From positions 1 through 54,703 of the forward strand of contig JAFSIJ010000043.1 of NCBI GenBank assembly GCA_017439845.1: 54,703 bases of DNA, written 5' to 3'. The notes beneath the pieces were generated by a model. That model searched no databases. It was not told where the DNA came from and saw only the letters and a list, made by a program, of their open reading frames with translations. This DNA is from Clostridia bacterium. GTDB taxonomy: Bacteria > Bacillota > Clostridia > Oscillospirales > Acutalibacteraceae. Numbering within the stretch: the stretch's first letter is position 1; every line of letters begins with the position of its first letter. The position numbers and the translations under genes were made by a program. Shown in pieces: positions 3,894 through 47,986 of the stretch.

Positions 3894-4887
3894 GATTAAG
3901 GCGGAGTGCAAGCTTCTTTCGCTTCGCAAAACTGCTCGTTTTCTTAAGAAAAGAGATAATTTTATTATACTGACCCACGCTTCTCCCGATGGTGATACAT
4001 TAGGCTCCGCCTATGCCCTTTATTACGGACTTAAAGAAATAGGCAAGGTGGCTGCAGTTATATGCCCTGATGTTATCCCGAAAAAGTACGGATATTTTGC
4101 CCGTACAACCGACCACGTTTTAAAGGAAAACTCAACCGTTATTGCGGTGGATGTTGCCGATGCTAATTTGCTTGGCGCATTAAAAGAGGAGTTTGGCAGT
4201 ATAGTAGACCTTAATATTGACCATCACGTTTCTAATATGAGATTTGCTAAAAATCTCTATCTTGATGCGGATGCATCATCAACCGCTGAAATTATATTTG
4301 AGCTTTTGCTTGCTATGAAGGTTAATATAAACGATATAACTGCAAGAGCAATATATACGGGTATCGCAACCGATACGGGTTGCTTTAAGTATTCCAATGT
4401 GAATGCAAAAACCCACCTTATTGCTTCTATGTTATATGAATATGAGCTTGATGCAGCCGAAATTAACCGCATTATGTTTGATACTAAATCTCACGCTTTG
4501 TTAGAGCTTGAAAGACAGGTGCTCGAAACAGCCGAATTCCATTTTGATAATAAATGTATGCTTTTGTGCGTAACCGCCGAAATGCAGGAGAAAACAGGCT
4601 GCAGCGGAACCGAGCTTGAGGGAATTGCGGTAATCTCGCGCAGTGTTGAGGGAGTTGAAGCAGGAATAACTATTAAACAAATCGGAGATGATGAGTTTAA
4701 GGTTTCGCTTCGAACCTTCCCGCCACTTGATGCATCGGCTATATGCAAAATGTTGGGCGGCGGCGGCCACAAGGGTGCCGCAGGTGCAACAGTTAAGGGC
4801 AGTATAGATGAGGTTAAAACTGCTGTTCTCGATGCCGTAAAGCAGGTTATGGAGGATACTTATGCAGGGGTTAATACTTCTCGATAA
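3883..4887 (+). CDS. nrnA: DHH/DHHA1 phosphoesterase (NrnA-type oligoribonuclease/pAp phosphatase)
   Basis: Motifs HASPDGDTLGS, DHH (NIDHH) and GGGGH (DHHA1). The ORF opens at 3859, but the ATG at 3883 has a GAGGAAAG Shine-Dalgarno. Confidence 0.85.
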   Translation: MKNKIKAECKLLSLRKTARFLKKRDNFIILTHASPDGDTLGSAYALYYGLKEIGKVAAVICPDVIPKKYGYFARTTDHVLKENSTVIAVDVADANLLGALKEEFGSIVDLNIDHHVSNMRFAKNLYLDADASSTAEIIFELLLAMKVNINDITARAIYTGIATDTGCFKYSNVNAKTHLIASMLYEYELDAAEINRIMFDTKSHALLELERQVLETAEFHFDNKCMLLCVTAEMQEKTGCSGTELEGIAVISRSVEGVEAGITIKQIGDDEFKVSLRTFPPLDASAICKMLGGGGHKGAAGATVKGSIDEVKTAVLDAVKQVMEDTYAGVNTSR

Positions 4888-6583
4888 AACTAAAGATATT
4901 ACCTCGTTTGGCGCCGTTGCGCGCATAAAACACCTTTGCGGTGAAAAGAGGGTAGGTCACACCGGTACGCTAGACCCATTGGCTACCGGTGTTTTGCCCG
5001 TGCTTATCGGTAAGGCAACTGCATTAAGCGGCTATATGCTTGATGCCGATAAAAGATACATCGCAACGGTGAAGCTTGGTGTCACTACCGATACCGAGGA
5101 TATAACGGGTGAGGTAATAGAAGAGCGAGAAGTTAGCGTAACTCAAGATAGGTTAGAAAAAACACTTCAAAAATTTGTTGGCAAGCTTATGCAACGCCCG
5201 CCAATGTATAGCGCACTTAAAAAGGATGGAATTCCTATGTATGAGCGCGCAAGAAGGGGCGAGAAAATAGATATCCCCGAAAGAGAAATAACCGTTCATT
5301 CGTTAAAGGTTTTAGAGTCGCTCAGCGCTGACAACACCTTTTCCTTTGAGGCGAGTGTCTCAAAAGGAACCTATATCCGTTCACTTATAAGGGATATAGG
5401 CGAGGAACTCGGTTGTGGCGCAGTGATGACCGAGCTTCGCAGAACCGAAACTGCGAATATAGATATTTCAAAATGCGTTAGCCTTGATAAGCTTAATTTC
5501 AAAAATATAAAGGACTATATAATAAACGAGGAAAATGCAGTTTCCTATATGAAAGAAGCTTTTGTAAGTGGGGCTCAGGCAGAACGATTCACAAATGGCG
5601 GAACCTTGAGCCTTGATAGACTTAAAATTGCGCCTAATCATAATGGAGAGCTTTTAAGGGTTAAATTTAAGGATAAGTTTTTAGGCGTTGGCAGGGTAGA
5701 TTTAGATAGCAGGGAGTTAAAGGTTGAGTGTGTTATAAACTATCCAAAGCTATCTAACGCTATAGCACTCGGCACCTTTGATGGCGTTCATTCGGCTCAT
5801 AAAAAGGTGTTAGACCTGCCCGAAAAATATAAAAAGATAGCGGTTTGCTTTTCTTTGCCACCCAAAACATATTTTGGAAATGAGGCAAGGCTTTTAACCG
5901 ATGAACAAACGAAAAAAGCAATGCTAAAGAATGCAGGAATGGATGAGGTATGCTCGCTCGAATTTAGCGACTTTCGGGATAAAACCCCAATGGAATTCCT
6001 TTTATTCTTGAAAGAAAGATTTTCACCAAAGGTTATTTCCTGCGGATATAATTATCGCTTTGGAAAGGATGCCGCAGGCGATATAAAGCTCCTTGAAGCT
6101 TTTTGCAAGGAAAACGAAATCAAGCTTATTTGCGAAAAAAAGGTTGAAAGGGGCGGCAAAACTGTTTCTTCAACCGCAATTCGTGAGCTTTTAGCGAATG
6201 GGAAAATCAAAGAGGCAAACTCAATGCTCGGGTATAAGTTTTCTTTCACTGCCGAGGTTATCGGTGGAGATAAAAGAGGGCGAACGCTCGGCTTTCCAAC
6301 GGTTAATCAGCGTTATCCCGAAGAGTTAGCAAGGCTTAAAAACGGAGTTTATAAAACAAGGGTTATCGTTAAGGGAGAAGAATATGAGGGAATTACCAAT
6401 ATAGGTAACAGACCAACATATCCTATAGATTTTATCGTTAGCGAAACCTACATTAAGAATTTTTCAGAAGAAATATATGGAGAAAAGGTAACGATAATTC
6501 CGCTTAGCTTTTTAAGAGAGGAAAAGAAATTCGTAAACATAGAAGAATTAAAACAACAAATTTTACTTGATTTAGGTGAATAG
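4862..6583 (+). CDS. truB/ribF: Fused tRNA pseudouridine-55 synthase TruB (aa ~1-295) and riboflavin kinase/FAD synthetase RibF (aa ~296-573)
   Basis: N-terminal half has the TruB catalytic motif HTGTLDPLATGVL and a PUA-like tail. C-terminal half has the RibF motifs GTFDGVHSAH and GDKRGRTLGFPTVN. One uninterrupted 573-codon ORF. Confidence 0.85.
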   Translation: MQGLILLDKTKDITSFGAVARIKHLCGEKRVGHTGTLDPLATGVLPVLIGKATALSGYMLDADKRYIATVKLGVTTDTEDITGEVIEEREVSVTQDRLEKTLQKFVGKLMQRPPMYSALKKDGIPMYERARRGEKIDIPEREITVHSLKVLESLSADNTFSFEASVSKGTYIRSLIRDIGEELGCGAVMTELRRTETANIDISKCVSLDKLNFKNIKDYIINEENAVSYMKEAFVSGAQAERFTNGGTLSLDRLKIAPNHNGELLRVKFKDKFLGVGRVDLDSRELKVECVINYPKLSNAIALGTFDGVHSAHKKVLDLPEKYKKIAVCFSLPPKTYFGNEARLLTDEQTKKAMLKNAGMDEVCSLEFSDFRDKTPMEFLLFLKERFSPKVISCGYNYRFGKDAAGDIKLLEAFCKENEIKLICEKKVERGGKTVSSTAIRELLANGKIKEANSMLGYKFSFTAEVIGGDKRGRTLGFPTVNQRYPEELARLKNGVYKTRVIVKGEEYEGITNIGNRPTYPIDFIVSETYIKNFSEEIYGEKVTIIPLSFLREEKKFVNIEELKQQILLDLGE

Positions 6584-7175: not shown

Positions 7176-10100
7176 TTCAATGAATTTTTTATTTAAAGAG
7201 TTATCTCTTGATGCCGATTATAAATCACTTCTAAATAGTGTTTTGAAGGATAGAATGCCGATAGTTGCAACAGGTCTTTCGGATATCCATAAGGCTCTTG
7301 TTGTGTCGGCGCTAACAAGCGAGCTTTCTCGAAAGGCGGTTATAATAACCGATACCGAGGCTGCGGCTAACACCCTTAAGGATGACTTTAATTCCTTCGG
7401 CGTTTCCTGTGTTAATTTCCCTTCAAGAGATTATTGCATAGGCGATATAGAAGGCTATTCAAGAGAGTATGAACATAAGAGAATACACACCCTATCCAAG
7501 CTTTTGGATGGGGATTTTTCCGTGCTCACAATGTCGGTTGAGGCAGCCTTGCAGTATACCGTTCCAAAAGAGATTTTAAGGGATAATCTAATCGAACTTA
7601 AAGTCGGCAAAGAGTATGATTTAAAGGCTCTTATCAGCGCGCTCATTAGCGGCGGATATTCAAGATGTGAGCAATGCTCGGGCGCAGGTCAGTTCTCGGT
7701 TCGCGGCGGAATTTTGGATGTATTCCCCGTTAATTCTCTCTATCCTTATAGGGTTGAATTTTGGGGCGATGAAATCGATAGCATTTGCGAATTTGATGTT
7801 TTAAGTCAAAGAAGAAATGAAAGTGTGGATAGTATAACTGTTTGCCCTGCAAGTGAGGTTATATTTGATGCGGGAGAGCTTGCGAAAACGCTTGAAGAAT
7901 ATGCCGAAAACGGAAAAGACTTAACAGATAAGCAGGAAATAATGCTAAACCGAGATGCCGAAAAGTTATATAGCGGAATAAATATATGCTCCGATAGATA
8001 TATCCCCCTTATCTACAAAGAGGGACAAACGATTTTTGATTATTTAGATGAAAATGCAATTTTCATTCTTGCCAACAGCGGAAATATATCCGCTCAAATA
8101 AAAACTCTTTCCGAGCGGCAGAATATGGATGCCGAAAACTTTTTAAGCGAGGGCTTTTTATCCAAAGAAACCTTTAAGCTTTATCTTAACGAGGATGAGC
8201 TTTATGATAGACTTTGTAATGTTTGCTTTATGGAGAATTTCCCGAGAAATTCTTATGAAATGGCAATAAAGGATGTTGTTAATTTTAACTTAAAGCGTTC
8301 ATCCGCCTGGAGTGGAGATATAAATATACTGCTTGATGATATTTCCTATTTGGTTGAGCAGGGCGGAAAGGTTGTTATATTGGCAGGTGAAAAGCGTGCC
8401 GCTATGCTTCTTAGCGAGCAGCTTTGCGAAAAGGGAATGCCCTGCCGCTATGATGAAAAACCCGAGGAAATAGGAAAGGGAATAACCGTTCTTGCAGGCG
8501 GACTTTCGGCAGGCTTTGAAATACCATCCGTAAGATTTATGCTCATAACCCACCGTTATATAGCGGCGGAAAACAAAAAAAGGAAAAAATATAAGGTTAA
8601 GGATGCCAAGGCGATAAATTCAATAGAGGAGCTCAAAAAGGGTGACTATGTTGTCCATGATGCCCATGGTATAGGCATTTTTGATGGAATTAACCGCATA
8701 ACCAACGATGGTGTTACAAAGGACTATATCCGCATTAAATATGCAAAAAGCGATGTTCTTTATGTCCCTGTTAATCAGCTTGATTTAGTTTCTAAATATA
8801 TCGGTGCCGCGGCGGAGAACGGAAGCATTAAGGTTAACCGCTTGGGCGGAGTCGAATGGCAAAAAACAAGAAGCCGTGTTCGTGCGGCGGTTAAAAATAT
8901 GGCAAAGCAGTTAACCGCATTATATGCTCGAAGAATGGCGGCAAAGGGCTATGCCTTTTCACCCGATACCGACCTTCAAAATGACTTTGAACGCAGATTC
9001 GAGTATGATGAAACCGATGATCAGCTTCGCGCAATAAATGAAATAAAACGCGATATGGAACGGGAAGTTCCGATGGATAGGCTCCTTTGCGGCGATGTCG
9101 GCTTTGGCAAAACCGAGGTTGCCTTGCGCGCGGCATTTAAGTGTATAAGCGAGGGCAAGCAGTGTGCGGTACTTGTGCCAACAACAATTCTTGCTATGCA
9201 GCATTATAATACCATCCTTCGCCGTTTTGGTGATATGCCCGTAACGGTTGGTATGCTCTCTCGTTTTGTAACAAAGCGTAAGCAGGAGCAAATTGTAAAA
9301 GACCTTAAAGACGGAAGACTCGACCTCGTTGTCGGAACGCATAGACTTATCTCAAAGGATGTTGAGTTTAAAAATATCGGTCTTGTTATTATCGATGAGG
9401 AACAGCGCTTCGGTGTTGCCCAAAAGGAAAGGCTTAAAGAATTATATCCCTTTGTAGATATATTAACCCTTAGCGCAACACCGATACCAAGAACACTTAA
9501 TATGGCTATGTCAGGACTTCGTGATATGTCGGCAATAGATGAAGCACCGGGGGATAGATACCCCGTTCAAACCTATGTGCTTGAACAAAATATGGGTGTT
9601 ATAATAGATGCCATAAATAAGGAAATAAGGCGAGGCGGTCAGGTTTATTATCTGCACAACAGGGTTGAAACCATAACACACTGCGCCGCAAGGCTGAAAC
9701 AACGATTGCCCGAGGATGTTAATATCGGTATTGCCCACGGAAAAATGAGTGAGGATGAGCTAAGCGATATTTGGAAAAAGCTTCTCGAACACGAGATAGA
9801 TGTTCTTGTTTGCACAACCATTATCGAAACAGGTGTCGATGTTCCGAATGCCAACACGCTTATAATAGAAAATGCCGATAGAATGGGACTCTCTCAGCTT
9901 CATCAATTAAGAGGTAGAGTCGGCAGATCTCCAAGGCGAGCCTATGCATATTTCTGTTTTGAAAGAAACAAACAGCTAACCGATATAGCTTCAAAAAGAC
10001 TTGAAGCCATAAGGGAATATACCGAGTTTGGCTCAGGCTTTAAAATAGCTATGCGCGACCTTGAAATAAGGGGAGCAGGCAGTATTTTAGGCGGCGAGCA

Positions 10101-10617
10101 GCACGGAAATATGGAGGCAGTCGGCTATGATATGTATCTAAAACTGTTGTCCGATGCGGTTAATGAGCAAAACGGTGTTGAGGTAAAGCAGGAAATTGTT
10201 TGCAATATAGACCTTAATGTTTCGGCATTTATTCCCGATAATTATATCGAGTCGCTCCCTGCAAGACTTAATATTTATAGGAGAATTGCCGATATAAAAA
10301 CGGATGAAGATGCATCGGATGTTATCGATGAGCTCTGCGACCGTTTTGGTGAGCCGCCAAAAACTGTTATGGGGCTTATAAATATCTCGCTTCTCAGAAA
10401 CAAAGCGCAAAGCCATTATATTTCGGAGATAACGCAAGAAAACAAACAAATTCTTCTTGAAACGAACGAATTAAGGGAAGAAACCGTTTCGGCACTCTCT
10501 TCATTTTTTGGTGACCGCTTTAGTCTTTCGGCAACCGCTAAAAACGGATATTTGATAAAAATACCCGACAATGAAAAGCTAACGAGTGTCATCGAAGAGA
10601 TCATAAAAGCACTTTAG
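7168..10617 (+). CDS. mfd: Transcription-repair coupling factor Mfd
   Basis: 1149 aa. Contains a UvrB-homology region, a CarD/TRCF RID domain, and superfamily-2 helicase motifs (GDVGFGKTEV, DEEQRFG, QLRGRVGR). Follows pth as in many Firmicutes. Start is ambiguous between 7168 and 7180. Confidence 0.95.
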   Translation: MVNSMNFLFKELSLDADYKSLLNSVLKDRMPIVATGLSDIHKALVVSALTSELSRKAVIITDTEAAANTLKDDFNSFGVSCVNFPSRDYCIGDIEGYSREYEHKRIHTLSKLLDGDFSVLTMSVEAALQYTVPKEILRDNLIELKVGKEYDLKALISALISGGYSRCEQCSGAGQFSVRGGILDVFPVNSLYPYRVEFWGDEIDSICEFDVLSQRRNESVDSITVCPASEVIFDAGELAKTLEEYAENGKDLTDKQEIMLNRDAEKLYSGINICSDRYIPLIYKEGQTIFDYLDENAIFILANSGNISAQIKTLSERQNMDAENFLSEGFLSKETFKLYLNEDELYDRLCNVCFMENFPRNSYEMAIKDVVNFNLKRSSAWSGDINILLDDISYLVEQGGKVVILAGEKRAAMLLSEQLCEKGMPCRYDEKPEEIGKGITVLAGGLSAGFEIPSVRFMLITHRYIAAENKKRKKYKVKDAKAINSIEELKKGDYVVHDAHGIGIFDGINRITNDGVTKDYIRIKYAKSDVLYVPVNQLDLVSKYIGAAAENGSIKVNRLGGVEWQKTRSRVRAAVKNMAKQLTALYARRMAAKGYAFSPDTDLQNDFERRFEYDETDDQLRAINEIKRDMEREVPMDRLLCGDVGFGKTEVALRAAFKCISEGKQCAVLVPTTILAMQHYNTILRRFGDMPVTVGMLSRFVTKRKQEQIVKDLKDGRLDLVVGTHRLISKDVEFKNIGLVIIDEEQRFGVAQKERLKELYPFVDILTLSATPIPRTLNMAMSGLRDMSAIDEAPGDRYPVQTYVLEQNMGVIIDAINKEIRRGGQVYYLHNRVETITHCAARLKQRLPEDVNIGIAHGKMSEDELSDIWKKLLEHEIDVLVCTTIIETGVDVPNANTLIIENADRMGLSQLHQLRGRVGRSPRRAYAYFCFERNKQLTDIASKRLEAIREYTEFGSGFKIAMRDLEIRGAGSILGGEQHGNMEAVGYDMYLKLLSDAVNEQNGVEVKQEIVCNIDLNVSAFIPDNYIESLPARLNIYRRIADIKTDEDASDVIDELCDRFGEPPKTVMGLINISLLRNKAQSHYISEITQENKQILLETNELREETVSALSSFFGDRFSLSATAKNGYLIKIPDNEKLTSVIEEIIKAL

Positions 10618-10891
10618 GGTGACAAGACTCGAACCTGTCACGCCTGACAAATAATAATTTTTAGTTTTTTCTTGCCTCATCATTTGTAATACGACAGTAT
10701 TACTGCATTCTTCGGCTTCACCTCTCCAAAAAATTATTTATTTGCAGGTCGAAGAATTTCTCTTAGCCACCTTTTTCTAAAAGGCGCAGCGTGAAATTTG
10801 CAGTAAGGCTGTCGCCTTACAAAAATAAGCGCAAGAAAGGGAGTAAAAGGTGGCAAGCGAAATCGTAATAGGTTCGAATCTTGTCACCCTA
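10615..10891 (+). repeat. 273-bp terminal-inverted-repeat element, copy A (10617-10889 plus flanking TA dinucleotides); MITE-like or structured RNA
   Basis: Ends are GGGTGACAAGACTCGAACC and GGTTCGAATCTTGTCACCC, which are inverted. Internal long-range helices and two covarying hairpins. A second copy lies at 34787-35059 in reverse orientation. No ORF inside. Confidence 0.8.
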
Positions 10892-21013: not shown

Positions 21014-21379
21014 GTGATTCAGTTAGATTATAAGAGCGGTATACCCATTTATGACCAACTGATAAACGGGATAATAAGACTTAAAATGCTTGGCGCCTTA
21101 AAGGGAGGGGACGCCCTTCCAAGTGTTCGCACCCTTGCATCCAGCTTGGGCATAAACCCCAACACTGTTCAAAAGGCTTACGCTATTCTTGAAGAAAGGG
21201 GCGTTATTTATTCGGTTTCGGGTAAAGGCTCCTTTGTTTCGGATGATAATGAGTCGGATAAGGCAGTAAGGGATATTGCGCTCACCGAGTTTAAGAAGGC
21301 TGTTTTGGATGCAAAGCATAAGGGGCTTAAGATAGAGGAGCTTATAAAATGCGTTGAAGAAATGGAGGAAGACCTATGA
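21014..21379 (+). CDS. GntR-family transcriptional regulator, short YtrA subfamily
   Basis: 121 aa. Winged-HTH region (LPSVRTLASSLGINPNTVQKAY) with a short C-terminal tail. Followed by ABC genes, as in ytrA operons. Confidence 0.85.
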   Translation: MIQLDYKSGIPIYDQLINGIIRLKMLGALKGGDALPSVRTLASSLGINPNTVQKAYAILEERGVIYSVSGKGSFVSDDNESDKAVRDIALTEFKKAVLDAKHKGLKIEELIKCVEEMEEDL

Positions 21380-22272
21380 TTGAAGGAATTAACCTTATAA
21401 AGAGCTTTGAAACAAAGAATGCTCTTGATGGTATCAATATTGAAATAAAGGATGGCTCGGTTTATGGGCTTGTCGGCTCAAACGGTTCGGGTAAATCAAC
21501 ACTTCTCCGTATGATTTCAGGTGTTTATAGCGCCGATGGCGGAGAGATACTGGTTGATGGAAAAAATCCTTTTAACAACACCGAAATTAAATCGCAAATT
21601 TGTTATTTGCCTGATATTCCGTTTTTTATCCATCAGTCAAACATTGATGAAATGGCAAAGTATTATGCTATGATGTATAGCACCTTTGATAAAGAGCGTT
21701 TTGAGTTTTTATCAAGTGTTTTTCCGCTTGATAGAAAAGCTCGAATTCAAACAATGTCAAAAGGTATGCAGCGTCAGGCGGCACTGATGCTATGCCTTTC
21801 GGTAAGACCGAAATATCTGCTTTTAGATGAAGCCTTTGATGGACTTGACCCCGTTATGAGAAAGGTTTTAAAATCACTTCTTGCTGAGGGTGTTTCGGAT
21901 GGAATGACCGTTATAATAGCATCGCATAATTTGGGCGACCTTGAAAGCCTTTGTGATAGCGTTGGTCTTTTGCATAATGGAAAGGTTGTATTCAGCGAAA
22001 GTATTGATAGCTTAAAAAACAGCGTTCATAAGGTTCAGGCGGCATTTAGTTCTGTTCCCGATTTATCGGTGTTTGAAAAAATAAATCCCATAAAATGTGA
22101 AAAGTCGGGCTCACTCGTTCAGCTTGTTGCCAAGGGAGAAAGAAAGGAAATATTAGATTTTATCAATTCTCTTTTGCCAATTTTTGCCGAGTGTGTAACC
22201 CCCGACCTTGAGGAAATATTTATCTATGAATTGGAGGAAAAAGGCTATGACTTTGAAGAATTGCTTAAATAA
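21376..22272 (+). CDS. ABC transporter ATP-binding protein
   Basis: Walker A GSNGSGKST, signature MSKGMQRQ, Walker B LLLDEAFDGLD. Four-nt overlap with the regulator gene. Confidence 0.9.
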   Translation: MIEGINLIKSFETKNALDGINIEIKDGSVYGLVGSNGSGKSTLLRMISGVYSADGGEILVDGKNPFNNTEIKSQICYLPDIPFFIHQSNIDEMAKYYAMMYSTFDKERFEFLSSVFPLDRKARIQTMSKGMQRQAALMLCLSVRPKYLLLDEAFDGLDPVMRKVLKSLLAEGVSDGMTVIIASHNLGDLESLCDSVGLLHNGKVVFSESIDSLKNSVHKVQAAFSSVPDLSVFEKINPIKCEKSGSLVQLVAKGERKEILDFINSLLPIFAECVTPDLEEIFIYELEEKGYDFEELLK

Positions 22273-26615: not shown

Positions 26616-28561
26616 TTACTTTATTGCTTTAGTTTCAATTTCGTTGACTGCTTTTGCGATGAATTCATCGATAGGCATAACTCCGAGGTCTCCGCCTTCG
26701 CCGCGCATTCTAACCGAAACAGTTCCGTTTTCAACCTCATTGTCACCCGCAACTAACATATAGGGCACCTTTTGAAGTCTTGCTTCGCGTATCTTATAAC
26801 CGATTTTTTCATTTCGGTCATCAAGCTCGACGCGCATACCCTTCGCCTCAAGCTTTGCTTTGATTTCATACATATAATCAAGATGTCTGTCAGCAATAGG
26901 CAAGAGCTTAACCTGTGTCGGAGCAAGCCACATCGGGAAAGCACCTGCATATTTCTCAATGAGAAGAGCAAGGGTTCTCTCATAGCAACCAATTGATGTT
27001 CTATGAATGATATAGGGGTTCTTCTTTGTTCCGTCGCGGTCAACATATTCCATACCAAACTTTTCAGCAAGCATCTGGTCAACCTGAATGGTGATAAGAG
27101 TATCCTCTTTTCCGTGAACATTGCGGATTTGGATATCAAGCTTCGGTCCGTAGAACGCCGCCTCACCGATACCAATTTTATAAGGTATCTCAAGGTGGTC
27201 AAGGATTCTTCCCATAATTCCCTGAGCCTCATCCCATTGCTCAGCAGTTCCTATATATTTATCCTTATCAGCAGGATCCCACTGTGAGAAGCGGTAGGAA
27301 ACATCCTCATAAAGACCTAGGGTTTTGAGCATATAAATTGCAAGCTCCAAGCAACCCTTAAATTCTTCCTCTAACTGTTCAGGGGTACACATTAAGTGGC
27401 CCTCGGAAATTGTGAACTGGCGAACACGAATAAGTCCGTGCATCTCGCCACTTTCCTCATTTCTAAATAGAGTAGAGGTCTCGTTATAGCGAAGTGGTAG
27501 GTCGCGGTATGAACGAGCGCGGTTGAGATACGCTTGATATTGGAAGGGGCAGGTCATTGGGCGAAGAGCAAAGCATTCCTTTGTTTCATCTGTCGGGTCA
27601 CCCAAAACAAACATACCATCAAGATAATGGTCCCAGTGGCCCGAAAGCTTGTAAAGGTCGCTCTTTGCCATATAGGGAGTCTTGGTTAAAAGCCATCCGC
27701 GTTTTGCCTCTTCATCCTCAACAAAGCGTTGGAGAAGCTGAATATCTTTGCTCCCTTTGGAAGCATAATCGGAAGACCTTGTCCAATAACATCAACGGTG
27801 GTGAAAAGCTCCATTTCACGACCGATTTTATTATGGTCGCGCTTCTTTGCTTCCTCAATTCTTGTCAGATGTTCTTCAAGCATTGAAGCCTTGGGGAATG
27901 CAGTTCCGTAAATGCGGCAAAGCATCTTATTATCGGAATTTCCTCTCCAATAAGCACCCGTTGCCGAGGTGAGCTTGAATGCCTTAACAGCGCCTGTGCT
28001 TAAAAGGTGTGCGCCTGCGCAAAGGTCGGTGAATTCGCCTTGCGAATAGAAAGAAATTTCTTCACCCTCGGGTAAGTCTTCAATAAGCTCAACCTTATAG
28101 GGTTCATCCTTCTCCTTGAAGAATTTTATTGCATCCTCGCGTGTCATAGTAAAGCGAGAAAGCTCAATATCCTCTTTAACGATTTTCTTCATTTCAGCCT
28201 CGATTTTAACAAGGTCATCGGGGGTGAACTTCTCATCGGTATCAAGGTCATAATAAAAACCATCATCAACTGCAGGGCCAATAGCGAGCTTAACATCAGG
28301 ATAAAGTCTTTTAACAGCCTGCGCTAATATATGCGATGCAGTGTGGCGGAATGTCCATTTACCATATTCATCATCAAATGTGAGAATTTCGAGAGCGCAG
28401 TCTTCGTTAAGTTTTGTGCGAAGGTCGGCATTCTCTCCGTTAATTCTTGCGGCACAAGCAACACGCGCAAGTCCCATACTGATTTGCTTTGCGGCATCAA
28501 TAACCGAAATACCCTTTTCGAGTTCCAGTATAGAGCCATCCTTTAAAGTTACCTTAATCAT
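26616..28561 (-). pseudogene. thrS: Threonine--tRNA ligase, reading frame broken by a 1-nt frameshift near 27741-27746
   Basis: ORF 27686-28573 gives the TGS, second-additional and start of the catalytic domains, ending ...LPIMLPKGAKI. The adjacent frame continues IQLLQRFVEDEEAKRGWLLTKTPYMAKSDLYKLSGHW into ORF 26616-27671 (class II core plus anticodon-binding domain). Adding one base restores about 648 aa. Confidence 0.85.
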
Positions 28562-28571
28562 ATTTACCTCC

Positions 28572-28800
28572 AAAAAAATAAACTCCGTCCCAAAAGGGAC
28601 GAAGCATTAAAAATCTCCGCGGTTCCACCCGAATTCCGTTTTATAAAAAACGACACTTTGGTTACTCTTAACGCGAGTAAAACGTCTGTGTTTGTTACCC
28701 ACAGCGCTCGAAGGTGGTCTTCATTCTTCCAAGGTCTGCGCGGCTTTCAGCCCATGACCGCGCTCTCTTAAAAACCTAAACGGAAAAACTACTGTTCTTC
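28572..28800 (-). promoter_or_regulatory. T-box riboswitch leader (threonine specifier, probable ACC) with terminator
   Basis: All read on the minus strand. AGAGAG box. Probable specifier ACC-A at about 28718-28715. T-box sequence AATTCGGGTGGAACCGCGG at about 28617-28635. Terminator CTTCGTCCC-TTTT-GGGACGGAG plus U-run at 28572-28604. Confidence 0.8.
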
Positions 28801-28819
28801 TCATAGCTTTTACCTATAC

Positions 28820-33376: not shown

Positions 33377-33784
33377 ATGATTAAAATCATAATCGGAAGA
33401 AAAGGTTCGGGTAAAACCAAGAAATTAGTCGATTTGGTAAACGAGGCTACAAGCAAAAGCTTAGGTAACGTTGTTTGCATCGAGAAAGGTGATACTTTAA
33501 CCTATTCCGTTACTCATAAGGCAAGACTTATAGATGCTGATGCTTATGGCATCTCGGGCTATGGCGAATATTACGGTATGCTTTCTGGCATCAAGGCAGG
33601 CAATCACGATATAACTCATATCTTTGGCGATGCAACTCTCCGTATCGGTACCAGAGATTATGATGAATTGGTTGCATTCCTTGCAAGACTCTCTAAGATA
33701 GAAGATGTTGATTTCCTCTTTACAGTTTCGGCTGATAAGGAAGAATTACCTAAGAAGCTCTTCGATATCGCAGAGGTTTGCTAA
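33377..33784 (+). CDS. Small P-loop protein of unknown function
   Basis: 135 aa with an N-terminal Walker A (GRKGSGKT). I recognise no further domain. Confidence 0.45.
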   Translation: MIKIIIGRKGSGKTKKLVDLVNEATSKSLGNVVCIEKGDTLTYSVTHKARLIDADAYGISGYGEYYGMLSGIKAGNHDITHIFGDATLRIGTRDYDELVAFLARLSKIEDVDFLFTVSADKEELPKKLFDIAEVC

Positions 33785-33922: not shown

Positions 33923-34783
33923 ATGAACGGAAATATAGTTATCACGAGTGACAGTACAACGGATTTAAGCGCCGCTTTAAAGGAAAGATATGGCGTTATA
34001 ACACTTCCACTCGGTATAAATTTAGGTGATAAAACCTATCTTGATGGTATTGATATAACTCCCGATTTTATCTATGAGCACCACAGCAAAACAGGTGAGC
34101 TTCCAAAAACAAGCGCCGCAAATCTCGGCGAGTCACTTGATTTTTTCAAGCAGTTCACCGATGAGGGCAAAAAGGTTATTCATTTCACTATCAGCTCCGA
34201 AATGTCTTCTACATATAGAAACGCTTGCCTTGCGGCAGAAGAGCTTGAAGGTGTCCGCGTTATTGATACTAAAAATCTTTCAACAGGTGGCGGTCTTCTT
34301 GTTGTAGCCGCTGCTGAGCTTCGTGATGCAGGAAAATCTTTTGATGAAATTGTGAGCGAGGTTGAAGCGTTAGTTCCTTGTGTTGATGCTTCGTTTGTTA
34401 TTGATAGTCTTGAGTATCTCCATAAGGGCGGCAGATGTTCCGCTCTTGCTATGCTCGGTGCAAATCTTTTAAAATTAAAGCCCTGTATTGAGGTTAAAAA
34501 TGGCTCTATGGGCGTTGGTAAAAAATATCGCGGTAAGTATGATGAGGTTTTAAAGCAGTATGTTAAGGAGCGCATCGGCGATGCATCTGATATAGTGCTT
34601 GACCGAGTTTTCGTAACCCACGCAGGTTGTGATGAAAAGGTTGTTAACGATATCGTTGATATTGTTAAGAAATCAGCCCCGTTTGGTGAGGTGTTCTTAA
34701 CAAGAGCAGGCTGCACCATCTCTTCACACTGCGGTGCTAACACCTTAGGCGTTCTCTTTATAAGAAAGTCACCTATCGAATAA
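33923..34783 (+). CDS. DegV-family fatty-acid-binding protein (second, divergent paralog)
   Basis: 286 aa. Motifs PKTSAAN, SSEMSSTY, LEYLHKGGRCS. Confidence 0.85.
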   Translation: MNGNIVITSDSTTDLSAALKERYGVITLPLGINLGDKTYLDGIDITPDFIYEHHSKTGELPKTSAANLGESLDFFKQFTDEGKKVIHFTISSEMSSTYRNACLAAEELEGVRVIDTKNLSTGGGLLVVAAAELRDAGKSFDEIVSEVEALVPCVDASFVIDSLEYLHKGGRCSALAMLGANLLKLKPCIEVKNGSMGVGKKYRGKYDEVLKQYVKERIGDASDIVLDRVFVTHAGCDEKVVNDIVDIVKKSAPFGEVFLTRAGCTISSHCGANTLGVLFIRKSPIE

Positions 34784-34784
34784 G

Positions 34785-35061
34785 TAGGGTGACAAGAGTC
34801 GAATCGGTTGCGATTTCGCTTGCCACCTTTTACTGCCTTTCTTGCGTTTATTTTTGTAAGGCGACAGCCTTACTGCAAATTTCACGCTGCGCCTTTCAAA
34901 AAAGGTGGCAGGTAGAAATTCTTCGACCTGCCAAATAAATAATTTTTTGGTAGAGCGAAGACGAGGAATGCAGTAATACTGACGTATTACAAATGACGAG
35001 GCAAGAAAAAACTAAAAATTATTATTTGTCAGGCGTGACAGATTCAACTTTTGTCACCCTA
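34785..35061 (-). repeat. 273-bp terminal-inverted-repeat element, copy B (34787-35059 plus flanking TA), inverted relative to copy A
   Basis: The reverse complement aligns end to end with 10617-10889, with about 28 differences by hand alignment. Same length and same GGGTGAC...GTCACCC termini. Confidence 0.8.
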
Positions 35062-35116
35062 AGCATATTATGAGATAGGGGAGAAAGTGCTTTCGTATAA
35101 CCCCTTTAATATATAA

Positions 35117-35153
35117 AGCCCTTGCGGAAATATCCGCGAGGGCTGTTTCTTTT
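35117..35153 (+). terminator. Rho-independent terminator (probably the original degV terminator)
   Basis: AGCCCTTGCGG-AAATAT-CCGCGAGGGCT followed by GTTTCTTTT. Confidence 0.75.
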
Positions 35154-35195
35154 AAAATAGTTATGGACTTATCAAAAGAATCGTGATATAATAAG

Positions 35196-36101
35196 ATGAA
35201 TTATAATGTAAAGGTGGGCGAGAAAGTGCAAACTATATGTGTTGCCGATGTGGTTATAAATATTGACAGTGCGGATAAGGAGTACTTTACCCGCCGTTAT
35301 AAAGAGTATGAGGTAGAGTATACCGATAATCCTGATATGTGGATAAAAACGGAGTGTATCGAGAAAATTGATGAGCCAAAGGGCGAGCTTATTGAGAATA
35401 TAAGAACCTCATATATCGTAAAAACCGAAGATGGCTTCCTTTGCCGATATGCAAAATCTTCAAAAACAGGTAAGATTGCGTATGCTATTTATTACAATGA
35501 AGATTATAGCAATGTAAAGATAGTTATGGAAAAGGGCTTTATTTTCCAAAAGCTCAATAATAGAGAATGGGAATACCTGTATACAGGGTTTATGTTTGCG
35601 AATAGGCTCACAAACCTTGGAGGTACCGTTCTTCATAGCTCGGGTATGGCTTATAAGGATATAGGAATTGTCTTTTCGGCAGACCCCGGAACAGGAAAAT
35701 CAACCCATGTTTCGCTTTGGAAAGAGCGCTTCCAGAATGATGTTGAAATAGTTAACGATGATAAGCCTGCTCTTAGAATAATTGATGATAAGTTTTATAT
35801 GTTCGGCACACCTTGGAGCGGAAAAACCGAGCTTAATATAAACACAAAAAAAGAATTAAAAGCTATATTTTTTATTGAACGCGATACTGAAAATAAGGTT
35901 GAGCGAATGAGCGTTGCAGATAGCGTTTTAAACCTTTCCCGCCAGCTTCCAAATCCATTTTATGATAAAAATGTAGGCATAAAAACAGTAAAGCTTATTG
36001 AAAAATTATATGCTTTAAATGTGCCTATTTATAGGCTTCGCTGCAGTATCAGTCAGGATGCTGTAACAGCAGTATATAACGAAGTAATAGGAGAAAAGTG
36101 A
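35196..36101 (+). CDS. HPr-kinase-C-domain-like P-loop protein (HprK-related kinase of peptide-modification clusters)
   Basis: GGTVLHSSGMAYKDIGIVFSADPGTGKSTHVSLW resembles the HprK C-terminal Walker A region. Followed by a PqqD gene. An extended -10 (TGaTATAAT, 35184-35192) lies only 3 nt before ATG 35196, so GTG 35226 (after AAAGGTGGG) may be the true start. Confidence 0.6.
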   Translation: MNYNVKVGEKVQTICVADVVINIDSADKEYFTRRYKEYEVEYTDNPDMWIKTECIEKIDEPKGELIENIRTSYIVKTEDGFLCRYAKSSKTGKIAYAIYYNEDYSNVKIVMEKGFIFQKLNNREWEYLYTGFMFANRLTNLGGTVLHSSGMAYKDIGIVFSADPGTGKSTHVSLWKERFQNDVEIVNDDKPALRIIDDKFYMFGTPWSGKTELNINTKKELKAIFFIERDTENKVERMSVADSVLNLSRQLPNPFYDKNVGIKTVKLIEKLYALNVPIYRLRCSISQDAVTAVYNEVIGEK

Positions 36102-36364
36102 TGAAAATTAAAGAAGGTTTTATCAAAAGTAATTTAGGGGATGAATGTGTTGTTGTGCCTGTTGGTGCGCAAACTGTTGATTTTCGCGGACTTATCACCC
36201 TTAATGAAACAGGCGAGTTTATATGGGAAATTTTGCAAAACGAAAGTGAGATTTCTGATATAGTGAGTGCGATGACAAAGGAATATGATATTGATGAAGC
36301 AACCGCAAAGGCGGATGCCGAAGAATTTGTTAAAATACTTAGCGAAAAGGGATTTCTTGAATAA
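36098..36364 (+). CDS. PqqD-family protein (RiPP recognition element-like)
   Basis: 88 aa. The size and pattern (...VVVPVG...LNETGEFIWEIL...EEFVKILSEKGFLE) are typical of PqqD/RRE proteins. Four-nt overlap with the upstream gene. Confidence 0.7.
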   Translation: MMKIKEGFIKSNLGDECVVVPVGAQTVDFRGLITLNETGEFIWEILQNESEISDIVSAMTKEYDIDEATAKADAEEFVKILSEKGFLE

Positions 36365-36366
36365 AA

Positions 36367-36870
36367 ATGATTAAGACAGTTAATATGTCTATGCAGGATC
36401 TTTCTCCCCTTATTTCAAGCTGTGTTGAATCGGGCAAGGAGGTTGTTCTCACCGTTACAGGTAACAGTATGCGCCCCTTTATCAAGGATAAGCGAGATCA
36501 GGTTATTCTCATAAAGGCAGATAAAGAAAATCTTCAAGTGAACGATGTTCCGCTTTATAGGAGAAGAAACGGAAAGTATGTTTTGCATAGACTCGTTAAA
36601 ATAGAAAACGGGAAATATACAATGCTCGGTGATGCTCAGGTAAGGCTTGAACCGGGTATAGAGCCCGACCAAATTGTAGCAATAGCAAAGGGCTTTATCC
36701 GCAAGGGAAAAACATATCCTTGTGATTCGAAAGAATATAAAAGATATGTTAGCTTTTGGAATAAAATGATGCCGTTAAGAAAATTTTATTTTCTTTTAAA
36801 GCGTGCGCCAAAAGCGGTTTTAATAAGAATAAAAAGGTTAGCTAAAAAAATCCTGTCACTCTTTAAATAG
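36367..36870 (+). CDS. S24/S26-family serine peptidase-like protein with a basic C-terminal helix
   Basis: GNSMRP nucleophile motif and a downstream HRLVK lysine context, consistent with a Ser-Lys dyad. Confidence 0.65.
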   Translation: MIKTVNMSMQDLSPLISSCVESGKEVVLTVTGNSMRPFIKDKRDQVILIKADKENLQVNDVPLYRRRNGKYVLHRLVKIENGKYTMLGDAQVRLEPGIEPDQIVAIAKGFIRKGKTYPCDSKEYKRYVSFWNKMMPLRKFYFLLKRAPKAVLIRIKRLAKKILSLFK

Positions 36871-36886
36871 AGGGCAGGATTTTTTA
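36845..36886 (+). terminator. Rho-independent terminator (imperfect stem)
   Basis: AAAAATCCTGTCACTCT...AGAGGGCAGGATTTTTT overlaps the stop codon. Confidence 0.6.
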
Positions 36887-36957
36887 AATATTTATGTTGA
36901 AAAAAGGGATATATTTTGGTATTATAAAGTGGTAAAAGGAAAGGTAGGTTTTTTTCT

Positions 36958-47131: not shown

Positions 47132-47986
47132 ATGAAGATAATTTTTGTTTGCACAGGAAACACCTGTAGAAGTCCTATGGCGGCAGGCTATCTCGAAAAT
47201 AAAAAAATAGAATGGCTTGAGGTTTCGAGCAAAGGATTGTTCGCAGATAAGTCCCCCGTAAGTGTGAATTCAGCTCTTGCTATGAAGGAAATCGGTATAG
47301 ATATTTCAAAGCATATATCATCGCAGTTAGAAAATGATGATATAAAGTCAGCCGATAGAATAGTTTGCCTTTCTAAAAATCATTTTGATTATTTGCTCAG
47401 TATCGGTGTTTCCCCTAAAAAGCTTTCGGTTTTAGGAAGTGGAATAGCCGACCCTTACGGAATGGGAATAGAAGAATATAGAAAATGCCGAGATGAAATA
47501 ATATCGGAGATTGACAAGCTTTTTGAAAACTCATTTTTTTCAGGGTTTAAAATTTCACCTATTGAGCAAAGGCATATATCAGCAATAGCAAAGCTTGAAA
47601 AGGTTTGCTTTAGCGAGCCTTGGAGTAGTGAAGCGATACTCGAGTCGTATAGTCACGGTGTTAAGTTTTTTGTTGCTGAAAATGAAGAGGATGTTTTAGG
47701 ATATATCGGTTTTTCCGCAGTTTGTGGCGAGGGCTATGTAACAAATGTTGCAGTTTTCCCGAAATATAGAAATATTGGTGTTGGGACCGCGCTTGTTAAC
47801 GAAGCAATTTCCTATTGCAAGGAAAATAGCCTTGATTTTCTATCCCTTGAGGTTAGAAAATCTAACGAGAATGCTATAAAACTATATGAAAAAAGCGGAT
47901 TTAAAGTGGTTGGCGAAAGAAAGGATTTCTATCGCAACCCAAAAGAAAATGCGCTTATTATGACTAAATATTTTAAAGAGAATTAA
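47132..47986 (+). CDS. rimI: Fusion of a low-molecular-weight phosphatase (YwlE/LMW-PTP-like, aa ~1-135) with ribosomal-protein-alanine N-acetyltransferase RimI (aa ~140-284)
   Basis: N-terminus has the P-loop CTGNTCRS and a DP loop (IADPYG). C-terminus is a GNAT fold (VAVFPKYRNIGVGTAL...YEKSGF). Lies immediately upstream of tsaD, as rimI usually does. Confidence 0.8.
   Translation: MKIIFVCTGNTCRSPMAAGYLENKKIEWLEVSSKGLFADKSPVSVNSALAMKEIGIDISKHISSQLENDDIKSADRIVCLSKNHFDYLLSIGVSPKKLSVLGSGIADPYGMGIEEYRKCRDEIISEIDKLFENSFFSGFKISPIEQRHISAIAKLEKVCFSEPWSSEAILESYSHGVKFFVAENEEDVLGYIGFSAVCGEGYVTNVAVFPKYRNIGVGTALVNEAISYCKENSLDFLSLEVRKSNENAIKLYEKSGFKVVGERKDFYRNPKENALIMTKYFKEN

Follow-up and report, generated by a model that had tools for sequence, protein, structure and literature searches.

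Three + strand open reading frames (ORFs) lie at 35196-36101 (301 aa), 36098-36364 (88 aa) and 36367-36870 (167 aa) in a 54.7-kb contig of an Acutalibacteraceae genome. They encode a kinase-like protein (K), a PqqD-type recognition element for peptides that are ribosomally synthesised and modified post-translationally (RiPPs; the RiPP recognition element, RRE, is here called B) and a signal peptidase-like protein (S). The contig, at its full length, is referred to as the window, and window-wide absences reported below apply to it. The trio (35226-36870) is a set of co-oriented, translationally coupled genes, and its function and its relation to known RiPP pathways were analysed computationally, starting from an original prediction that had been made from the sequence alone.

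The tight packing of three + strand ORFs was as predicted, and the 2-nt gap between B and S stood; the predicted 4-nt overlap of K and B is 1 nt with the preferred start of B. The start codon of K also had to be moved, from ATG 35196 to GTG 35226, because the 18 aligned homologues of K begin at the latter position and because, in a 91%-identical relative from an Acutalibacteraceae metagenome-assembled genome (L006, the nearest relative of the window), an ATG stands at the K start and a 1-nt indel upstream of it throws the extension MNYNVKVGEK out of frame. As homologous RREs start MKIKEGF, B most likely starts at ATG 36101, sharing 1 nt with the stop codon of K. The promoter (extended -10) and terminator that had been claimed for the cassette were both recovered (Table 1). 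The promoter-like site, which is a consensus match only, is kept in L006 save for 2 spacer bases. The terminator hairpin has a folding energy of -21.6 kcal/mol (z -6.98), and none of 200 shuffled sequences was equally stable. A separate hairpin at 35117-35144 closes the upstream unit.

Table 1 Coordinates of the genes and expression signals of the K-B-S cassette in the window
Feature	Position	Strand	Basis or remark
Promoter-like site TGGACT-17 nt-TG-n-TATAAT (extended -10)	35164..35192	+	consensus scan, 10/12 matches
Shine-Dalgarno-like sequence AAAGGTGGG	35210..35218	+	7 nt before GTG 35226; kept in L006
K, ScmC-family (PF27840) P-loop kinase-like protein, 291 aa	35226..36101	+	listed ORF begins ATG 35196
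B, discrete PqqD-type RRE, 87 aa	36101..36364	+	listed ORF begins GTG 36098
S, archaeal/SipW-type S24/S26 peptidase-like protein, 167 aa	36367..36870	+	family and fold matches
Intrinsic terminator: hairpin 36845-36885 over S stop codon, then U-run to 36891	36845..36891	+	RNA fold

K gave no match to Pfam Hpr_kinase_C (PF07475) at E<=0.1 in the local library, and its NCBIfam matches were weak (HprK_rel_A, E 0.002; ScmC, E 0.03). Homologues of K are assigned to PF27840 ('ScmC'), a more recent Pfam family. A PDB sequence search with the kinase profile returned P-loop noise from ATP-binding cassette (ABC) transporters alone. An AlphaFold2 (AF2) model of K (predicted local distance difference test, pLDDT, 91.8) was matched by Foldseek to ATP-dependent phosphoenolpyruvate carboxykinases (PEPCK) and to the C-domains of HprK/P, with probability 1.0, E-values from 1e-7 to 1e-5 and template modelling (TM) scores of 0.2-0.55. 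The Walker A motif GTGKST (residues 165-170 in the 301-aa numbering) and the motifs NDDKPA and GTPWSGK are invariant in an alignment with 18 homologues. K is a predicted ScmC-family P-loop kinase of the PEPCK/HprK fold.

B matches Pfam PqqD (PF05402) over its full length (E 3e-18, 66.2 bits vs a cut-off of 23.4). Among solved structures, the lasso B1 protein TbiB1 (E 2e-7) and LppB (PDB 9x8z, E 0.0035) are nearest to it. Residues N36, Y63, D73 and F77 of B correspond to N33, Y60, D70 and F74 of LppB, in whose crystal structure these four residues touch the Tyr and Pro of the leader peptide, D70 by a hydrogen bond to the Tyr and F74 by stacking on the Pro.

S matches Pfam Peptidase_S24 marginally above the cut-off (E 2e-5), and its best NCBIfam match is the archaeal-type signal peptidase I (E 1.5e-7; 31 bits, below the 52-bit cut-off). 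The AF2 model (pLDDT 88.5) was matched by Foldseek to SipA, LexA, lambda cI, UmuD' and SpsB, all of the S24/S26 fold; in the model the protein has no membrane anchor at its N-terminus, and a long basic helix forms its C-terminal end. Among 20 homologues G32, S34, M35 and P37 (GNSMxP), H74-R75, G88-D89 and E95 are invariant, and no conserved Lys was found. S is therefore predicted to be a Ser-His enzyme of the ER/archaeal, SipW-like kind. The family and fold assignments of the original prediction therefore hold for all three proteins, with two corrections of detail: K is HPr-kinase-C-domain-like at the level of fold and remote homology, not at that of sequence, where Hpr_kinase_C gives no match, and S is an S24/S26-type protein as proposed but with a Ser-His rather than a Ser-Lys active site. 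The PqqD-type nature of B needed no amendment.

To place the trio among other genomes, a pattern scan with one genome per species gave 80 loci with relatives of K; ORFs in these were called crudely, as longest ORFs grouped by BLAST clustering. Genes for K, B and S follow directly in that order in 65 of the 81 other loci, each from a different species and mostly from Clostridia, and with the window included 69 of 82 loci have both B and S no more than 8 kb from K. Among the taxa represented are Acutalibacteraceae, Oscillospiraceae, Lachnospiraceae, Clostridium, Paenibacillus, Syntrophomonadaceae and Desulfitobacteriaceae. The linkage of K, B and S is far above chance. A word-indexed search returned 3,976 proteins of the kinase family after clustering at 90%, a count that takes in the kinases of a related pathway in Bacilli (see below) because PF27840 covers both branches.

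Many of these loci hold more than the trio. Among the 48 that are well flanked, a gene for an exporter of about 553 aa (ABC_membrane plus ABC_tran) lies directly downstream in 27, an NTP_transf_5 protein of about 400 aa is encoded in 17, and CpsB- or Wzz-like capsule genes adjoin the trio in 8. The remaining architecture of interest is that of the window itself: the trio with no gene for a precursor (A), exporter (D) or nucleotidyltransferase (N). This was found in 15 of the 48 (about 30%), that is in the window and 14 other species. The eight closest relatives, with K at least 49% identical, are all of this trio-only kind and stand in differing genomic contexts; no small ORF is common to the surroundings of the trio in them. 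PADLOC (2023) defence models gave no family matching the trio at E<=0.01, and a scan of the trio proteins against PHROGs gave no match. In about 10 related species (L003 2679-7674; also L015, L020-L026, L029 and L037) K-B-S and an ABC gene stand directly 3' of a phage head module comprising large terminase, portal and major head protein, on the same strand and with no tail genes between.

The fuller loci were then a source of candidate substrates. All-against-all comparison of the small intergenic ORFs of 80 loci gave one dominant family, present at 17 loci and 31-64 aa in length, which lies on the strand of K and usually 125-280 nt upstream of it. Searches with hidden Markov models (HMMs) and regular expressions raised this family to about 20 loci, and a metagenome scan added 11 further candidates, of which five adjoin K and a sixth adjoins B-S-D. 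Members (MKKEYEKPQIEIEEYELPCICSESGGLGDGEDF, MKKPYEKPELEITRFETEDIAYSVPDPSGMEGIDLD and MVNYTKPELEITEFEIVDVLTISIQADGPDAEFGAWY are examples) share a leader MKKxYExPx[IL]E[IV]xx[FY]E followed by a short, variable, acidic core, in which a Ser often stands a few residues from the start. The Y and P of the YxxPx[I/L] element are invariant, and this element is of the RRE-binding motif class found in the leaders of lasso peptides and of linear polyphosphorylated peptides (LPPs; PMC13381572). RREs with an adjacent precursor show the same pocket pattern as those of the trio-only loci, in which the N, Y and D of the pocket are kept in 15 of 15 and the fourth position is F or Y in 14 of 15. Given this conserved pocket, B still looks, from its residues, built for holding a YxxP leader.

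Two other candidates for a precursor were rejected. The surface proteins of one cluster (c5), encoded upstream of K at several loci and weighed as possible giant precursors, are SLH/LRR proteins with signal peptides and no shared leader, and a 43-aa ORF upstream of K in L003-L005 belongs to the phage head module.

LPPs were described in Bacilli by Popov et al. (Nat Commun, May 2026; PMC13381572). Their cluster, lppA-K-B-S-D-N, encodes a precursor, an HprK-like kinase, a discrete RRE, a signal peptidase I-type (SpI) peptidase, an exporter and a nucleoside triphosphate (NTP) transferase; LppS is an archaeal-type SpI homologous to SipW and LppD is MsbA-like (PMC13381572). The LppA leader carries the motif YxxPxVLxHQxIxFETxxS. 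In experiments LppK added 1-4 phosphates to Ser3 of the core, and LppS (S29/H68/D93) removed the leader in a cleavage for which LppB was required (PMC13381572). For comparison, two LPP-type loci were fetched via homologues of an LPP peptidase listed in that paper. Both encode a PF27840:ScmC kinase, a PqqD protein, an SpI-like peptidase and an ABC exporter, in the order K-B-S-D, and one of them (L086) holds a precursor with the published leader motif.

K is 25% identical to the LPP kinases, and profile alignment (hhalign 97.8%, E 9e-13) pairs them over the C-terminal P-loop domain only. B is 32% identical to an LPP RRE over 66 aa (E 2e-10). S aligns with the LPP SpI peptidases (hhalign 98.2%, E 3e-14) with the Ser, the His and the Asp of the GD motif in register, and is 28% identical over 98 aa to an SpI of the cluster 1 type (E 9e-6). 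E95 of S stands opposite an invariant Asp of the LPP SpIs (D95), which is probably D93 of LppS, and D89 of S aligns with D89 of the LPP enzymes. Judged from these alignments, the trio is a distant homologue of lppK-lppB-lppS. Closer relatives were found among proteins for which PMC13381572 gives the precursor as 'not determined' and which it lists without study, namely the SpIs of clusters 4 and 9 of its sequence similarity network (SSN) and the 'other RREs'. S is 40% identical to a cluster 4 SpI of Anaerocolumna (E 5e-28) and 28% identical to one of cluster 9 (E 1e-19), and B is 38% identical to a cluster 4 'other RRE' of Dehalobacter. By sequence, S and B thus resemble the cluster 4/9 SpIs and the 'other RREs' and not cluster 1 or the LPP RRE clade, a placement that is based on pairwise identities to the listed proteins rather than on a rebuilt SSN or tree.

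The candidate precursor family of the branch to which the window belongs is not described in PMC13381572. Its [F/Y]-E-x follows YxxPx[I/L] three residues nearer than does the F-E-T cleavage motif of the LPPs; cleavage site and phosphosite in the candidates are presumed purely by analogy. In the fuller loci of this branch, where candidate precursors, exporters and NTP_transf_5 proteins are encoded, K is 43-47% identical to K of the window. In Paenibacillus contaminans a published LPP cluster is accompanied by a second cluster, K-B-S-N, of the window type (L017) and with a different precursor, MKKEYEKPQIEIEEYELPCICSESGGLGDGEDF; two paralogous systems thus coexist in one genome. The clusters of L013 and L017, both from Paenibacillus, were taken as second, non-LPP clusters because the LPP motif is absent there.

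Whether the trio of the window is functional was assessed from its divergence from L006. At a synonymous divergence (dS) of 0.8-1.0, the ratio of nonsynonymous to synonymous substitution (dN/dS) was 0.066 for K, 0.040 for B and 0.086 for S, and 0.036 and 0.058 for the neighbouring DegV and amidohydrolase genes. The trio is under strong purifying selection, like its housekeeping neighbours. The candidate catalytic residues are intact (Walker A in K; S34, H74, D89 and E95 in S). A decaying remnant of a larger LPP-like cluster, which has lost precursor, exporter and nucleotidyltransferase and has no present function, would explain why the window is without the A, D and N genes seen in fuller clusters of this branch. 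The original prediction had offered this as one alternative. It is contradicted by dN/dS values of 0.04-0.09, the same as for housekeeping genes, and by the trio-only loci in 14 other species, the eight closest of them in differing contexts. All candidate catalytic and binding residues are also in place, and the promoter-like site, ribosome-binding site (RBS) and terminator are intact and conserved. Decay is therefore very improbable.

The partners that the trio would need were sought throughout the window. The LPP motif YxxPxVLxHQxIxFETxxS was found in none of the six frames of the window or of 85 loci. The branch precursor HMMs, full-length and leader-only, and the regular expression [YFW]xxPx[LIVMF] gave nothing above noise in the window, L002 or L006-L012; the best score in the window was 4.9 bits. 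A tblastn search of the window with the ABC exporters and NTP_transf_5 proteins of the family found no homologue; its one weak match, in the nucleotide-binding domain, was to the ABC ATPase at 21376-22272, which is unrelated. Neither a lasso cyclase nor a B2 protease of the transglutaminase type nor a RiPP radical SAM enzyme was detected when the large ORFs of the window were scanned with Pfam; the only Asn_synthase match (E 7e-4) is in MnmA, and a DUF512/PDZ radical SAM protein was taken as housekeeping. With that protein set aside, the absences noted in the original prediction were upheld by Pfam for cyclase, B2 protease and radical SAM enzyme among the large ORFs scanned, by tblastn for an exporter of the family and by the leader models for a precursor.

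These results bear on the possibility that the trio is a trans-acting accessory module for another RiPP cluster, for example of the paeninodin-type lasso class, to which it would contribute phosphorylation and an alternative means of leader removal. The branch leader KKxYxxPxIEI may resemble that of paeninodin. B has a lasso B1 protein as its nearest solved relative, paeninodin-like clusters use HprK-like kinases and NTP transferases for tailoring, and lasso genes adjoin about a third of the LPP SpI genes (PMC13381572). No Asn-synthase-like cyclase or B2 protease was found among the scanned ORFs of the window, however, nor in the five loci, from three related contexts, with precomputed Pfam labels. 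LPP and lasso RREs discriminate between their precursors (PMC13381572), and the family is kept as K-B-S(-D) with its own precursor. An accessory role of this kind is quite unlikely.

Taken together, the evidence leans towards the trio being the functional K-B-S core of an LPP-like RiPP pathway, which acts in trans on a precursor encoded elsewhere and belongs to a clostridial sister branch of the lppKBS system of Bacilli. B would bind a small precursor peptide by the YxxPx[I/L] motif of its leader and present the precursor to K, which would phosphorylate a Ser early in the core, possibly repeatedly. B would also present the precursor to S, a soluble SipW-like Ser/His peptidase, which would cut off the leader. 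The product would be a linear phosphopeptide, short and acidic. In this genome neither the precursor nor any exporter or nucleotidyltransferase would be linked to the trio, and for that reason the trio must, on this proposal, act in trans. We infer both that the branch does as the LPP enzymes of Bacilli do and that it acts in trans. The minimal pathway that the original prediction had listed as an alternative is thus now favoured, on the strength of the homology to the kinase-RRE-SpI set of PMC13381572, with the location of its substrate elsewhere presumed.

Such an arrangement has parallels. A stand-alone precursor-like ORF (MKKQYEAPVMEIVEFETEDIITTSGEINNGLIIDPTGEN) was found at 8985-9101 of a metagenome contig (L094), in housekeeping surroundings between a glycerol-kinase-like gene and a gene for an 808-aa protein that matches no Pfam family. 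K, B, S, D and N are all absent within 9-10 kb of it, and precursor and maturation genes can therefore be unlinked. Together with the proportion of trio-only loci and the variety of their contexts, this indicates that unlinked architectures occur.

Several points weigh against the LPP-like assignment. The search for a precursor was negative both across the 54.7-kb window and beside the trio in its closest relatives, which makes the substrate hypothetical, and the window has no homologue of the family's exporter. Only about a quarter of the loci of the family have a recognisable precursor, and the leader model may therefore be incomplete. The identity of the trio to the characterised LPP proteins is low, at 21-32%, K and LppK do not align in their N-terminal domains, and the third catalytic residue of S is probably Glu95 rather than an Asp. 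The sequencing runs that hold the locus are DNA metagenomes only (gut, faeces, sheep).

The same missing partners would fit a non-RiPP or repurposed function, the third alternative of the original prediction, in which the trio phosphorylates and cleaves a cellular protein, such as a surface or secreted protein at its N-terminus, or regulates intracellularly. Precursor, exporter and nucleotidyltransferase are all wanting in 54.7 kb, and the trio-only loci stand among housekeeping or carbohydrate genes in varied contexts. Several of the fuller loci adjoin genes for large surface proteins (SLH, LRR, Flg_new) or the CpsB-/Wzz-like capsule genes, and PMC13381572 lists LPP precursors of up to 200 aa and notes a capsule context. 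Against this, the RRE pocket for a YxxP leader is conserved in the trio-only loci, the sister loci with K at 43-47% identity have small precursors directly upstream of K, and no candidate protein substrate is consistently linked to the trio. A non-RiPP function is accordingly judged unlikely.

A broader proposal is more doubtful than the LPP-like core itself and is put forward tentatively: clostridial K-B-S may form a distinct RiPP subfamily with its own leader code and short acidic phosphopeptides as products, in which the trio-only loci are a split architecture that serves one or more unlinked precursors or has been repurposed for an intracellular or surface protein. On this proposal, a conserved maturation core lacking an exporter would be split from its substrate in abundant gut Oscillospirales. 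LPPs were described only in 2026 and only in Bacilli; in gut and rumen Clostridia the kinase/RRE/SipW-like-peptidase machinery has a divergent branch, which is widespread there. The candidate precursor family and its leader motif make the pathway of this branch directly testable, and the recurrent trio-only loci under purifying selection are a clean case for asking whether RiPP cores act in trans. Genome mining based on clusters (antiSMASH, RODEO) would miss maturation cores that do so.

The surroundings of the trio in the window were also examined. The original prediction had placed it at the edge of an accessory-looking region; the neighbours are instead core or metabolic genes, and those compared are syntenic in L006. 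The large ORFs scanned show a core chromosomal region with infB to mfd, der, plsY, gpsA, thrS with a T-box, mnmA and pgi; the trio is flanked by DegV on one side and an amidohydrolase gene on the other, and GH95, FucU, polA, tsaD, mreBCD and PBP2 genes come after. A search of Rfam found nothing significant upstream of the cassette (34750-35260, E-value threshold), and over the whole window (gathering threshold) the T-box at 28592-28813 was the sole match.

The non-coding stretch 35041-35225, upstream of K, is 92-95% identical to L006, compared with about 80-88% in the coding flanks and 63-70% in other intergenic stretches. It contains the hairpin 35117-35144, the promoter-like site and a 9-codon ORF (GTG 35088 to TAA 35117, MLSYNPFNI; 7 codons in L006) with a strong RBS of its own, a near-duplicate of the RBS and start region of K. 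A CCCCUUU within the stretch pairs with the K RBS in the minimum free energy fold (z -4.9), and the stretch may be a regulatory leader. A 277-nt element resembling a miniature inverted-repeat transposable element, with 21-24-nt terminal inverted repeats (TAGGGTGACAAGAGTCGAATC...), is present in two copies, at 34785-35061 and 10615-10891; the copy between DegV and the cassette is missing from the same site in L006, where there is only a short hairpin.

Elsewhere in the window, the threonyl-tRNA synthetase gene behind the T-box (26616-28573, - strand) is split into two ORFs that differ in frame, with TGS+SAD encoded at 27686-28573 and the catalytic core and anticodon domain at 26616-27671, which could be a frameshift, an assembly error or a truly split gene. 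Between pgi and DegV lies a 135-aa P-loop-like ORF without a Pfam match (33377-33784), whose 5' part, 97-100% identical to L006, is the most conserved stretch compared. Two gene fusions were noted: TruB pseudouridine synthase with RibF (FAD synthetase/riboflavin kinase) at 4862-6583, and a low-molecular-weight phosphotyrosine phosphatase with a GNAT acetyltransferase at 47132-47986.

The components of the trio can be compared with several known systems. K shares the P-loop nucleotide-binding domain of the PEPCK/HprK fold with HprK/P and with ATP-dependent PEP carboxykinase, but its N-terminal beta-rich domain is unrelated to the HprK N-domain and its expected substrate is a peptide rather than HPr. 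PF27840 is named after ScmC of the SynChlorMet cassette, and K has a PqqD-like partner, just as ScmC has ScmD; yet K scores 13.5 bits vs the 125-bit cut-off of TIGR04249 (ScmC) and B 21.1 bits vs the 100-bit cut-off of TIGR04248 (ScmD). SynChlorMet has two radical SAM/SPASM enzymes, whereas no SPASM enzyme was found among the scanned large ORFs of the window, which has an S24/S26 peptidase instead. With the SipW/Sec11-type signal peptidase I, S has in common the GxSMxP Ser motif, the HR His motif, the GD motif and the S24/S26 fold; it differs in being unanchored, in its C-terminal basic amphipathic helix, in always being encoded beside an RRE and in its putative role, the removal of leaders instead of secretory signal peptides.

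Paeninodin-type lasso clusters, with their PadeK-type kinase, B1 RRE, NTP transferase and ABC exporter, are similar in pairing a B1-like RRE with an HprK-like kinase; loci related to the window also have an ABC exporter and a nucleotidyltransferase, and it is a lasso B1 structure to which B is closest. They differ in that the window has neither the lasso cyclase (C) nor the transglutaminase-type B2 protease, in the serine SpI-like peptidase that would remove the leader and in the product, which is expected to be linear.

The LPP clusters have the same three kinds of core protein in the same K-B-S order, with the B gene ending 2 nt before S and a Ser-His-type SpI beside a discrete RRE. The fuller relatives of the trio likewise have an MsbA-like exporter and an NTP_transf_5 protein, and the pocket residues for a Tyr-type YxxP leader are kept in B. 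The differences are in the leader (YExPx[IL]E[IV]xx[FY]E in the window branch, YxxPxVLxHQxIxFETxxS in LPPs), in the third catalytic residue of the peptidase (probably Glu in S, Asp in the LPP SpIs), in the A, D and N genes, which the window locus is without, and in the host, a gut clostridial Acutalibacteraceae rather than one of the Bacilli. The trio has the core enzymes of an LPP cluster; it lacks the precursor motif, the exporter, the nucleotidyltransferase and the placement in SSN cluster 1, and because of these four differences it is filed as an LPP-like variant rather than as an LPP cluster.

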